A DNA stretch of 64,000 nt from a virus. Taxonomy: Duplodnaviria; Caudoviricetes. The notes beneath the pieces are model-generated. The model made no database searches. It saw only the letters and a program-made list of their open reading frames with translations, and was not told the DNA's origin. Made by a program: the position numbers and the translations under genes. This document shows positions 4,365 to 55,084 of the stretch, one piece after another (the first letter of the stretch is position 1; each line of letters opens with the position of its first letter). Location: the IMG/VR virus record IMGVR_UViG_3300037067_003221, positions 1 to 64,000 of that record; one strand, given 5' to 3'.

Positions 4365-4438
4365 TATTTCTTCTTCCCGTTTTTAGGTTTGGCCTTGGGT
4401 TTGGCTTTAGCCCCGCCACCACCTGATTTACATGCCAT
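4364..4438 (-). CDS. Lys-rich micro-protein (24 aa)
   Basis: MACKSGGGGAKAKPKAKPKNGKKK; fills the gap between two genes with a TAATG overlap. Confidence 0.55.
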   Translation of the reverse strand: MACKSGGGGAKAKPKAKPKNGKKK

Positions 4439-5523: not shown

Positions 5524-6030
5524 TTATTGTTCTGTGTTTTGTGCGTTATCAATGATAGTAAACATCCTGTTACTAATGCGATCAACAATTCCTTCAAAAT
5601 CAGGAATGTCTTTTAGTTCTTCTAAAAGAACCTTTACTGTTTCACCGGCGACAGTCACCAAGGTCTCTTTTGATAGTAAGTTACCAGAAGCAATTTCTAG
5701 TTTCTGAGAGGCTGTCTTTAGTTTTTCGATCAACGCCAATTGTTCTTTAATGAATCCACCGGCAGAAATCTCGTCGGCTTGGCTGGTAATACTGTTGATG
5801 CGATTTTCAAGCATCATTTCGGCAATGGCGATTTCCCATTGCAGTCCCTTCATTTTGTTGTGACCCGCCAGTTGCGAAGTCCGTTCACGATACTTGTGTT
5901 TAAGCAACTGATATTGTTGCTTCTGGTCGTGATCTTTTGCTAGGTGAGCATGGATGGGGCAGTAGTCCCTTTGTTCCATTGCATCTTCGGGGCATTGCCC
6001 ATATTGGGGGTTAATGTGTCGGCATTGCAT
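5524..6030 (-). CDS. Putative terminase small subunit-like protein
   Basis: N-terminal C-x8-C-x10-CPIH zinc knuckle followed by a helical body; first gene of the late operon. Confidence 0.45.
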   Translation of the reverse strand: MQCRHINPQYGQCPEDAMEQRDYCPIHAHLAKDHDQKQQYQLLKHKYRERTSQLAGHNKMKGLQWEIAIAEMMLENRINSITSQADEISAGGFIKEQLALIEKLKTASQKLEIASGNLLSKETLVTVAGETVKVLLEELKDIPDFEGIVDRISNRMFTIIDNAQNTEQ

Positions 6031-10311: not shown

Positions 10312-10739
10312 TCGTTATAAAATCTCAGGATGAAACTTTGATGCGGTCGTTAGGTGGTACTCTACGAAAAGGTGTATGGAAACTATGGAAGTTGCCTGAC
10401 GCAATCAAGCAACAACTCGGCGATGCCGTAGAAGGTTGCAACTACTTGCTTAATGGAGATTGGTTCTCGGATTTATATGCTATTTCCCTGGACCCCCGAT
10501 GCCACTGCTCCTATGCTACGCTAGTAAAACGGGCTGCCGAAGGCCATATTGATTTTACGGGCCGTGCCCGGCCAAGGATACCTTTTCGACGGGCCGCACA
10601 GCCGATTATTTTTAAGGGCACGACTTATACGACTATTGCAGCCTTTGCCCGTGCCCACGGACTAGACCCTAAACTAACCCGTGCCCGCCTGCGACTAGGC
10701 TGGTCATTTGAAGAAACCATTGAAGGAAAGCGAAAATGA
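10308..10739 (+). CDS. Putative DNA-binding protein (DPRC module plus HTH-like C-terminus)
   Basis: LDPRC.C.YATL and FKG..Y.TI...AR.HG......RL..GW..EE modules. Confidence 0.5.
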   Translation: MIVIKSQDETLMRSLGGTLRKGVWKLWKLPDAIKQQLGDAVEGCNYLLNGDWFSDLYAISLDPRCHCSYATLVKRAAEGHIDFTGRARPRIPFRRAAQPIIFKGTTYTTIAAFARAHGLDPKLTRARLRLGWSFEETIEGKRK

Positions 10740-11383
10740 ATCAACGTGACTACGATGAATTGTTGGGAGAGCCAGCTAAGAACAACCTAGATGAATTTCG
10801 ACGCTTACGGTTATCATTGGAACAGGTGCTTCGAGTAGAGAATGCTCGACACCGGGGTATTGTGGCTTCTGTTGAACAGAGCCTAGAGGCTTTGCAGCAA
10901 GCCTGTCCGCATCCGGTGAGTTCGTTGTCGAAACATTATGGCGTATTCCCGGAGGATACGTACACCCACTGTTATATTTGTGGTGCCGAACGATGATAAC
11001 AGTTTACATCATTCGCAAGAAAGGCACGGACCTATATCAAGGCCGAGCCTACTGGGGTCCATTCGGCAACGCCGAAGTATTTCAAGAGTGGCAAATGCCA
11101 CAAGTCCTTCGCGGCCTTAAATACGAGTCAGAGCGGTATGGAGAGTTTGAGTGGGAAATTTTACAATATGATTTAACGGAGACACCATGAGCATTAAACG
11201 AATTGGCATTGTTGAACTTATCAGAGATACCGAAGTCACTTGGCTTCATATCAAAGACAGTAAAGGGCGTGAGGCACTTTATAACGTGGAAGCATTGGCC
11301 GAGAAGCAATCGCCTATGTTGGGTAGCATCCTTCGTCAATGGGCTGACGATAAATTTAATTTTCCTAATGTAGAAGGTGCGTG

Positions 11384-17296: not shown

Positions 17297-17707
17297 ATGG
17301 ATAGGCCACAAATTGGTGTTAGTGTATTCATTCGACGCAATGGTAAGATACTCTTGGGAAAACGCATTGGAAAACATGCAAATGGTTTCTATGCAACTCC
17401 TGGCGGGCACCTAGAAGGTGGCGAGTCGTTTGAACAATGTGCCATTCGAGAAGCCGAAGAAGAAACCGGCCTTCAATTGATTGGTGCTAAATTCAAAGCG
17501 ATCATCAACACCATTTTTTATAATGAAAGCAAACACTATGTCTTGATTATCATGGTAGCCGATTGTCCAGATGGGCAAGAGCCTGTGAATACAGAACCAG
17601 CTAAATGTGAGGGCTGGGAATGGTATGACTGGGCCAAACTACCTACGCCATTGATGCAGGGCACAGCGAAGTTTGTAGCACACGGCGGAAATCCATTTGA
17701 GGTTTAA
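17297..17707 (+). CDS. Nudix hydrolase (NUDT15/MutT-like)
   Basis: PGGHLEGGESFEQCAIREAEEETG Nudix box; EPAKCEGWEW. Confidence 0.9.
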   Translation: MDRPQIGVSVFIRRNGKILLGKRIGKHANGFYATPGGHLEGGESFEQCAIREAEEETGLQLIGAKFKAIINTIFYNESKHYVLIIMVADCPDGQEPVNTEPAKCEGWEWYDWAKLPTPLMQGTAKFVAHGGNPFEV

Positions 17708-53570: not shown

Positions 53571-54620
53571 ATCAAGTTCCAGTGTGCAGGGTTAGTTAGT
53601 CACTACTACAACTATACACTATTTTCCAGGGTTGTCAAGTCATTTTCGGAGCAAAATAAACCAATGAGTAATGTTTTCCATCCCATACCCATACAGATTT
53701 ACCAGGGCTAATAACAGGTTTATTCGTAAATGGACCGCTAATAATCCCAGGGTGGTCGGGGTTTATGCCGATACCAATATAGTAGCTAGGGACTAATTCA
53801 CTTTTGGCCGTTGCTACTATATCTTCAATCGCCACTTGCAGGGCGGCATCCCGCTCACTTAGACTTGCTTGAATCAAGTCCCATAGGTTGCAATACTCGG
53901 CAGACCCTCCGAATGGCCCCATCGAATGCTGGTGTTTATACAGTAAGTGACGGGCGTATTCGAGCGTTAGTTTTGTTAAATCGTCCATTTACCCTCCAAT
54001 GTGGCAGTGACCGCACCAATACCAGAAATGTCCGTCACGACAGCTAAGAACCTTATAAATGGCACGGTCGCCACAATCGCCACACACCCGTTCAGGTGAG
54101 CAAGACGTTAGCACAACTGGCAGCCCTTCCATGTTCATTACGAATATCTCGGTAAAACCCGTTGCATTCATGCAATGGATTCTAACCTTTTCATCGGAGA
54201 AAGGCGGAAGCGTTACAATTAGGTCCATGATTATCTTGATAACCTCCGTAAGCAAATATACAGGTAGGCGGGGTCATACGGTTGCGGATTGCCTTCGATG
54301 TAAACCTGACCCCGGAATATGGTTCTGACCCGGCCAAACACGCCAGACCCTTTAACCAGCAAACCACTAATATCCTTACCCATCAGGATAACAGTTTTTA
54401 ACGATAGGCTACCCATATTGCCGTTCATACTCTTTGGTTTTCCAGCAAACTATCGTCACATATTGTGCCAATAGCCGACTATCATCAAGATTGTCTTTGC
54501 CGTGGAAGTGTTGAATATAGCAAGAGGCGGCATCGAATACTTCGGGAGTATCCGCGCACCACCACAAGCCATGAGCAATTTCGATTGCTTCTTTCAATAG
54601 TGCTTTATCGTATTTCATAG

Positions 54621-54763
54621 TGGACCTTGGAGGCTCGAACTCCCAACAGTCGGCAAAGGTCTGCTTAAAAGCTATTTTCTAGCTATCTCAGACAATCCCG
54701 GTCGATCATTCCGGTAGGCTCCGAGTGTCAGCTTTCATCACCGTCTTGCGACCATGCAGGCCC
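54621..54763 (-). ncRNA. tRNA-like RNA with Ala-type acceptor end (tmRNA tRNA-like-domain mimic)
   Basis: GGGCCT/AGGTCC-A with G3:U70 and A73; T-arm GGAG-TTCGAGC-CTCC; internal hairpins; 3 nt downstream of tRNA-Glu. Confidence 0.55.
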
Positions 54764-54766
54764 AAG

Positions 54767-54838
54767 TACCCCGTGCGAGAATCGAACTCGCGCTATGAGA
54801 TTGAAGGTCTCATGTCCTAACCGTTAGACCAACGGGGC
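54767..54838 (-). tRNA. tRNA-Glu(TTC) with atypical C33
   Basis: GCCCCGT/ACGGGGT acceptor, arm TGAGA-CCTTCAA-TCTCA, short variable loop, GTTCGA. Confidence 0.85.
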
Positions 54839-54841
54839 GTA

Positions 54842-54939
54842 TGCAGCCGTATGGGGGGTGTCACCCCGCCACAACCCTGCTACGGGAGTCATAACCGCCG
54901 AGCAAAGACACAGTAAGCTATCAACCTACTGCCGACTAC
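54842..54939 (-). ncRNA. Cloverleaf-like RNA at the head of the tRNA-Glu transcript
   Basis: 7-bp stem GTAGTCG/CGGCTGC plus A enclosing three hairpins; same 5' GTAGTCGGC as 49555-49681. Confidence 0.6.
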
Positions 54940-55084
54940 ATTTCAACTATACCATAGTTTAGGCGATTGTCAAGCAGAAAATTCAAGAATCGATTGTAGT
55001 GGTCATCGGGGTCAAGTGGCGATCCAACCGCGAAGATCGCTGGACCCCGACAATCAGAATAACCGTGCAAAAGAAAACGGCCAG

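Follow-up and report, generated by a model that had tools for sequence, protein, structure and literature searches.

A structured 143-nt tRNA-like RNA gene with a tmRNA-type layout in the tRNA operon of an uncultured phage

The RNA gene, its second allele and its fold

The window analyzed here comprises the first 64 kb (64,000 nucleotides) of IMG/VR record IMGVR_UViG_3300037067_003221, a 147-kb genome of an uncultured phage that is rated complete by CheckV. The window carries a 143-nt tRNA-like RNA gene at 54621–54763, and comparison of its sequence with that of a second allele shows a conserved, structured gene within a tRNA operon. All features of the operon lie on the minus strand. Within the RNA, position i is found at window coordinate 54764 − i, and the numbering thus runs from 54763 (position 1) to 54621 (position 143); the base before G1 is designated U(−1). 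The operon is headed by a strong promoter-like site (54946–54973; TTGACA-16-TATAGT with an extended −10 TG, 11 of 12 matches), which is followed by a 98-nt structured RNA (54842–54939) and, after a 3-nt gap, by tRNA-Glu(UUC) (54767–54838), which was called by ARAGORN and scored 63.6 bits with Rfam. The 143-nt RNA gene begins 3 nt (CUU) after tRNA-Glu; both this distance and the size of 143 nt had been given in the original prediction and were borne out. Its end is separated by 2 nt (CU) from the ATG (54618) of an open reading frame (ORF) of 69 amino acids (54409–54618). ARAGORN finds 14 tRNA genes in the phage genome, which also encodes a terminase, a portal, a major head protein, a Ro60-like protein (PHROG 850; its gene lies approximately 12 kb away from the 143-nt RNA gene), and RtcB.

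The minimum free energy of the 143-nt RNA does not improve on that of shuffled sequence (z = −0.74), so a single sequence was not sufficient to establish the feature as real. The second allele lies on L116, a 7.2-kb Logan contig that was reached through a single relative, 85% identical, of the amidoligase gene located 1 kb downstream. A covariance model (R1) built from the single 143-nt sequence of the window matched this contig over 143 nt (L116:2311–2453, 105.6 bits, E = 4e-23). The matched RNA directly follows an almost identical tRNA-Glu and lies 2 nt before the same 69-amino-acid ORF, and the promoter-like site of the operon is identical in both. A further record, JGI 3300014205, holds a partial, identical copy of the window phage's own allele (G000).

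The fold was obtained with RNAalifold from a hand-checked alignment, and pair counting on a model-made alignment agrees with it. All 34 proposed pairs are formed in either allele. Six of them are changed on both sides in a compensatory manner, and there is no one-sided change and no broken pair; the structure was itself partly derived from these two alleles. By contrast, control structures slid by 1 to 3 columns showed no compensatory change and 31–52% pairing. The comparison confirms, at the level of sequence, a real structured RNA gene beyond chance.

The acceptor stem is composed of a 5' strand (G1, G2, G3, C4, C5, and U6; 54758–54763) paired with 54622–54627, and the 3' strand (A137–C142) together with the unpaired A143 occupies 54621–54627. 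The acceptor marks that had been claimed for this RNA, G1-C142, G2-C141, and G3·U140 (equivalent to G1:C72, G2:C71, and G3·U70 of tRNA) and A143 (equivalent to A73, the discriminator in the register that starts at G1), are present in both alleles. With C4-G139, C5-G138, and U6-A137 the stem has 6 Watson–Crick or wobble pairs rather than 7, G7 being opposite A136. A136 is also opposite G120, which leaves the T-stem with 4 pairs rather than 5. The base facing G120 is A136 in the window and G in L116. The acceptor pair 6:137 changes from U-A in the window to A-U in L116. There is no encoded CCA after A143, which is followed by CUAUG. The linker GUUG (117–120) and the T-arm extend over 54629–54647, with a stem of 121–124/132–135 and a loop of UUCGAGC (125–131); the T-arm of the original prediction is indeed there, its loop closed by GGAG/CUCC. 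The T-stem pair 123:133 changes from A-U in the window to G-C in L116, where the loop reads UUCGACU: T54, U55, C56, R57, and A58 are conserved, with variation at positions 59 and 60, which is a tRNA-like pattern.

G7 and a stemless D-loop analogue (positions 8–17) lie at 54747–54757. This region reads CAUGGUCGCA in the window and CUUGGUUGCA in L116 with a conserved GG, and positions 8–17 are left essentially unpaired by the RNAalifold consensus. A GNRA hairpin (GUC-GCAA-GAC, 12–21) was considered as a D-arm and rejected, as it is a single-sequence prediction that is broken in L116. Below the D-region, a helix-2-like stalk of 9 bp is formed by positions 18–26 (54738–54746) and 108–116 (54648–54656, including UUGCCG). 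The P2-like helix CGGUGA/UUGCCG reported earlier is part of this stalk, which is kept in both alleles: the pairs 22:112 to 26:108 (five) are invariant, 18:116 changes from A-U in the window to G-C in L116, and 19:115 from G-C to U-A. An alternative stalk (35–43/111–119) suggested by constrained folding lacks covariation and would require another internal loop in L116, and the 18–26/108–116 stalk is preferred.

The interior of 81 nt is a three-way junction of plain hairpins without pseudoknots. The junction is closed by the 3-bp helix H3, in which positions 32–34 (GCU; 54730–54732) pair with positions 99–101 (54663–54665). H3 holds two compensatory changes, at 32:101 (G-C in the window, A-U in L116) and at 34:99 (U-A in the window, C-G in L116). 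A competing helix (71–75/101–105) was rejected, since it pairs less well in L116 and shares bases with the covarying H3. Positions 35–78 (54686–54729) form a 44-nt core with 0 of 44 differences between the alleles. The core contains helix H4 (39–44/72–77), a 5×5 internal loop, and helix H4b (CCGG/CCGG, 50–53/63–66) capped by a 9-nt loop, AAUGAUCGA. The core is followed by hairpin H5 (80–94, AGCUA-GAAAA-UAGCU; 54670–54684), of which the stem AGCU/AGCU (80–83/91–94) is kept in L116 while the loop is altered and 2 nt shorter. The internal hairpins of the original prediction are found in the sequence; the GUC-GCAA-GAC hairpin is not kept in the second allele.

The two alleles differ in 29 of 145 columns of the RNA, compared with 13 of 331 in the flanks (promoter, tRNA-Glu, and ORF; Fisher p = 7e-8). 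All 29 differences fall outside the core, that is, among the remaining 101 columns of the RNA, so that the outer scaffold changes approximately 7 times faster than the flanking DNA, which differs by approximately 4%. The core is not demonstrably special, because zero changes in 44 nt are also expected from the divergence of the flanks (p = 0.38). The excess of differences ends exactly at the boundaries of the RNA gene, and its cause could be either diversifying selection or gene conversion.

Class membership and comparison with known RNAs

The tRNA-like domain (TLD) of transfer-messenger RNA (tmRNA) consists of an acceptor stem that can be charged only with alanine through G3·U70 and A73, the keys for alanyl-tRNA synthetase (AlaRS), together with a T stem-loop, a stemless reduced D-loop, and helix H2; tmRNAs are 230–400 nt in length and their ring wraps the 30S beak (PMC3968760). 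The 143-nt RNA shares with this domain the G3·U70 pair and the A discriminator, the tRNA-type T stem-loop, the stemless reduced D-loop, and the H2 helix. It has neither the pseudoknot ring nor the length of a tmRNA, and curated models do not recognize it. Its interior of 81 nt is much too short to fit around the 30S beak in the manner of the tmRNA ring.

The check with ARAGORN and Infernal tmRNA models that the original prediction had proposed was carried out and came back empty: neither ARAGORN nor Rfam calls a tRNA or a tmRNA in the 143-nt RNA. A search of the bare 151 nt with 4227 Rfam models at E ≤ 10 returned no tRNA, tmRNA, or YrlA match, and the tmRNA model (RF00023), run over the whole phage, matched solely the T-arms of tRNAs elsewhere. 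ARAGORN at its normal threshold with introns allowed gave nothing credible, and low thresholds gave junk. A smaller tRNA at positions 66–144 and an intron-bearing tRNA appeared only at ARAGORN thresholds of 70–80%, amid this junk, and were rejected. A tRNA with a large insertion, in other words a spliced tRNA, had been offered as an option; it is not supported, as an anticodon arm cannot form and the intron mode of ARAGORN found nothing credible. A canonical tRNA (RF00005) was rejected, since there is no D-stem and no anticodon arm, and the 9-bp stalk closes an 81-nt domain instead. Because it has no anticodon loop, the 143-nt RNA cannot read codons. The only Rfam matches were weak hits to C/D-box small RNAs (9–12 bits, E of 0.6 to 7), and a C/D-box or kink-turn reading was set aside, the GUGAUGA and CUGA boxes being GUGAUAA and CCGA in L116, and a search for an antisense RNA against a phage target gave just chance matches of 10–13 nt. 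The 143-nt RNA is neither a canonical tRNA nor a member of the tmRNA family.

The earlier description of a tmRNA-like RNA with alanine identity is therefore upheld in part. The TLD layout and the acceptor marks are found in both alleles; the tmRNA models are silent, the acceptor and T-stems have 6 + 4 rather than 7 + 5 pairs, and the tmRNA-like 5' motif GACGG, which is present in the window allele, is UUGGG in L116 and hence not conserved. Together with its L116 allele, the RNA makes up a new sequence family with two members, of a kind already known from phages, namely tRNA mimics of the TLD type.

One of the closest known systems is the TLD-only tmRNA derivative carried by Mycobacterium phage DS6A (NC_023744, 28478–28560; Hudson, Lau & Williams 2014, PMC4131195); its authors note strong inhibition of tmRNA by a similar molecule, perhaps through titration of SmpB (PMC4131195). 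Structural comparison between the DS6A RNA and the 143-nt RNA revealed that (i) both have G3·U70 and A73, lack an encoded CCA, and are tagless; (ii) both have a stemless D-loop starting with CA(A)UGG (CAAUGG in DS6A), a short helix-2-like stem closing a small interior, and a canonical T-arm; (iii) the DS6A RNA is approximately 80 nt in length, with acceptor and T-stems of 7 + 5 bp and a UCGAC motif; and (iv) the 143-nt RNA has 6 + 4 pairs with a purine–purine layer, no UCGAC, and an 81-nt three-way junction. What is shared is a phage-borne TLD layout without a tag message, whereas descent from, or likeness to, tmRNA or DS6A was not found; the R1 model gave no match at the DS6A TLD locus, where homology is undetectable.

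One-piece tmRNA (SsrA, RF00023) resembles the 143-nt RNA in its alanine marks, T-arm, stemless D-loop, and an H2 helix at the site of the anticodon arm, and it differs in possessing pseudoknots and a conserved resume codon and tag, neither of which is present here. The T4 species 1 RNA (rnaC, 139 nt) is a stable RNA of a phage tRNA cluster. Its gene immediately follows that of a tRNA or small RNA, and a T-arm (CCGGG-UUCGAAU-CCCGG) lies beside its 3' end. All of these recall the 143-nt RNA, but the acceptor pairing of rnaC is imperfect and without G3·U70, and an R1 search of T4 found no sequence similarity. The YrlA RNAs (Chen et al. 2014, PMC4201824) are mimics of tRNA, among them one that RNase P cleaves and to which CCA is added. 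These bacterial Y RNAs are, like the 143-nt RNA, non-coding tRNA imitators and occur in phages with Ro60; unlike it, they have their own conserved D- and T-arms, the Ro60 site GNCGAA(N)G, and a gene beside rsr.

The only other R1 match, at L058:17589–17663, is not significant (15.2 bits, E = 1.8). It falls on one of two tandem genes of 74–75 nt (17589–17663 and approximately 17501–17574, minus strand; contigs 3300028887_000096 and 3300028914_000055), which are also found in L059, L123, and L124. The pair shares with the 143-nt RNA the GGGC...CAUG start, G3·U70, A73, a non-canonical D-region, the T-loop UUCGAGC, and the 3' end GGUCCA; by contrast, both genes are tRNA-sized, with a normal anticodon arm (alanine: UGC, CGC) and stems of 7 + 5 bp. 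The likeness hints that the 143-nt RNA may have originated from a phage tRNA-Ala. The pair receives no ARAGORN call and, at 18.3 bits, lies below the Rfam tRNA threshold; these may be phage tRNA-Ala genes without a D-stem.

Possible functions

We tentatively propose that the 143-nt RNA is an alanine-accepting mimic of the tmRNA TLD type that acts as a decoy, a proposal that we put a little short of an even chance. One promoter would transcribe it together with tRNA-Glu, and host tRNA-processing enzymes (RNase P and 3' processing) would probably release it. A host CCA-adding enzyme would cap the RNA, and host AlaRS would charge the CCA-tailed molecule with alanine. AlaRS needs only an acceptor helix with G3·U70 and A73, and both of these are kept in the two alleles although neighbouring positions change. 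The charged RNA would then compete with host tmRNA for SmpB and EF-Tu, thereby weakening the tagging at stalled ribosomes, and with it that of phage proteins, during infection; alternatively, it might let stalled ribosomes empty without a degradation tag.

The fast but pair-preserving change of the scaffold fits selection on an interaction surface. The rapid changes are found in the D-loop, the top of the stalk, the T-stem, positions 59 and 60 of the T-loop, and the layer between the stacked helices, and many of them are near the elbow. SmpB binds the TLD at the elbow (PMC3968760). The changes on the elbow side fit selection on an SmpB-binding surface, which is not proof of it.

Several points weigh against the decoy. 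The acceptor/T stack has 11 layers, namely 6 pairs, one purine–purine layer, and 4 pairs, one fewer than the 12 of the canonical stack. Both alleles retain U(−1) and A143, which are complementary and by pairing would bring the stack to 12 layers. If enzymes that gauge distance from the elbow were to use that register, the RNA would start at U, a G·U would sit at 4:69 with a C as discriminator, and the alanine identity would be lost; we consider the register that starts at G1 the more probable of the two by a modest degree. The phage's own gene set was searched for smpB and for a CCA-adding enzyme and contains neither, so host factors would be needed. The invariant hairpin, which is better kept than any other part of the RNA, has no function in the decoy model. 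The covariation rests on one comparison, because there are two alleles only. To these points are added the silence of the Rfam models and of ARAGORN, the loss of GACGG in L116, and the failure of R1 to match DS6A, as described above.

An extended form of the decoy would assign the hairpin a part. The alanine-charged, anticodon-less, tagless mimic would enter stalled ribosomes with host SmpB, or soak up SmpB, and so switch off tagging; the elbow and stalk would be under the diversifying selection of an arms race, and the invariant hairpin would recruit a further partner. Such RNAs would form a distinct class of anti-trans-translation RNAs, invisible to ARAGORN and derived from a phage tRNA-Ala. 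We regard this complete scenario as unlikely. Should charging with alanine and SmpB binding hold true, the RNA would represent either a natural means of inhibiting bacterial ribosome rescue or a variant of that rescue without the tag. To date, such a role has been inferred for no more than the DS6A TLD-only RNA and engineered TLDs. Phage tRNA clusters, which are usually read as helpers of codon usage, would then also hold tRNA mimics that standard detectors miss, and a fast-changing, pair-keeping scaffold around an unchanged hairpin would offer a handle for finding partner proteins.

The strongest rival to the decoy is a carrier function, in which the tRNA-like frame serves solely to ensure correct processing, a CCA cap, and protection from nucleases, and the 39-nt hairpin (39–77) binds a phage or host protein, for example, one of the RNA-repair set of this phage (Ro60, RtcB, and a Thg1-like enzyme), as bacterial Y RNAs do. 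This explanation accounts for the core 35–78 being the only part without change between the alleles, and the same genome encodes Ro60 (PHROG 850) and RtcB. The precedent of the YrlA RNAs, as tRNA mimics of which one is RNase P-cut and CCA-tailed (PMC4201824), is in its favour, and tRNA-like RNAs of 100–150 nt are found at many loci beside phage RtcB genes (described below). However, the Ro60 motif GNCGAA(N)G is absent, no YrlA model of Rfam matches at E ≤ 10, and the Ro60 gene is distant; on these grounds the 143-nt RNA was also rejected as a Y RNA proper. YrlA has a D-arm, whereas the 143-nt RNA has none, the unchanged core is equally predicted by the divergence of the flanks, and the retention of G3·U70 and A73 is left unexplained. 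We consider the carrier function not very likely.

The RNA could instead be a stable tRNA-like RNA comparable to T4 species 1, in the 12-layer register with U(−1):A143 and a C discriminator, without alanine identity and with a role unrelated to trans-translation. This register would restore the canonical stack from two bases that both alleles keep, and T4 rnaC provides a precedent in its length of 139 nt, its place in a tRNA cluster, and a T-arm beside its 3' end. U at −1 with A73 is, however, also the commonest combination in ordinary bacterial pre-tRNAs. The run of G1:C72, G2:C71, G3·U70, and A73 is kept though the adjacent pair 6:67 flips, and the RNA has no sequence similarity to rnaC. We consider this alternative rather unlikely.

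The neighbouring ORF suggests another role for the fold. The 69-amino-acid ORF is conserved in L116, where it shows 12 differences in 210 nt and where six of its ten altered codons are synonymous; judged by these substitutions, it is a real gene under purifying selection. The AAGG upstream of it sits inside the acceptor 3' strand of the 143-nt RNA and is GUGG in L116, so the Shine–Dalgarno site of the ORF is not conserved. Cleavage at the tRNA-like end would leave the message of the ORF nearly leaderless. The fold could therefore be a processing signal that directs the RNase P and RNase Z cuts freeing tRNA-Glu and making a nearly leaderless CU-AUG start, and the 2-nt spacing to the ATG, which is the same in both alleles, agrees with this. 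A minimal acceptor and T-arm would suffice for such a signal, however, and the stalk, H3, H4, and H5 are nevertheless kept by compensatory change; the alanine marks would be unnecessary. A processing signal is very doubtful as the explanation.

A small frame, AUG-AAA-GCU-GAC-ACU-CGG-AGC-CUA-CCG-GAA-UGA (positions 26–58; 54706–54738), is not accepted as a tag frame. The original prediction had noted no convincing tag frame, and the second allele agrees with it: AUG is AUA and GCU is ACC in L116, and GCU lies within the covarying helix H3. The remainder of the frame (GAC...UGA) is in the invariant core and has no synonymous variation, and its stop codon is in a hairpin loop. The 143-nt RNA is very unlikely to be a tag template. 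A working miniature tmRNA, which would resume on GAC-ACU-CGG-AGC-CUA-CCG-GAA, stop at the UGA in the H4b loop, and append a non-degron tail, (A)DTRSLPE, is highly improbable: an open frame just after an A-rich stretch, identical in both alleles from the resume point and with its stop in the loop of a hairpin, a placement shared with tmRNA helix H5, is set against a pseudoknot-free interior of two side hairpins where tmRNAs of 230–400 nt have a ring (PMC3968760), the change of the alanine codon within a covarying helix, the lack of synonymous variation, a tail without the hydrophobic end typical of tags, and the silence of tmRNA models.

Relatives, other tRNA-like RNAs and neighbouring features

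Searches for further members of the family covered several collections. A blastn search against 50,697 phage records found matches to tRNA-Glu only, and exact and degenerate pattern scans of IMG/VR, as well as pattern scans of GTDB genomes, found no useful family member; the pattern scan of JGI metagenomes gave 4 chance hits. R1 found no significant family member over 80 RtcB loci, two fully read relatives by TerL, T4, and DS6A. Protein searches with the neighbours returned only the 69-amino-acid ORF itself and, for an ORF of 79 amino acids, nothing. A 14-nt identity in the relatives G001 and G002 was rejected, as it falls in a coding region.

Other uncalled tRNA-like RNAs were observed along the way. 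In G002 (IMGVR_UViG_3300006871_000008), a TerL-related phage, a tRNA-like RNA of approximately 100 nt (approximately 5913–6012, minus strand) is located just upstream of tRNA-Gly. It has a D-region like that of tRNA-Glu, a T-arm (CGGGG-UUCGACU-CCCCG), and an insertion at the site of the anticodon arm, and it receives no ARAGORN call. RNAs of 100–150 nt are also found beside RtcB genes, at L035:5076–5192, L035:9294–9442, L041:8916–9055, L072:821–924, and L061:4092–4202. Each carries between one and three T-arms and is closed by a stem resembling an acceptor, and they are likewise uncalled by ARAGORN. In G001 (IMGVR_UViG_3300050026_000282), the 3' part of tRNA-Ile occurs twice (4403–4419 and 10735–10751, minus strand), approximately 6 kb apart and with near-identical flanks, which looks like an attachment-site duplication.

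Within the operon itself, the arrangement of tRNA-Glu followed by the 143-nt RNA is the same in L116. The 98-nt structured RNA is absent there (L116:2170–2235), and the same promoter runs directly into tRNA-Glu; close relatives thus differ cleanly in whether they have the 98-nt RNA gene. The anticodon loop of tRNA-Glu, CCUUCAA, is identical in L116 and has a C at position 33, where the usual base is U.

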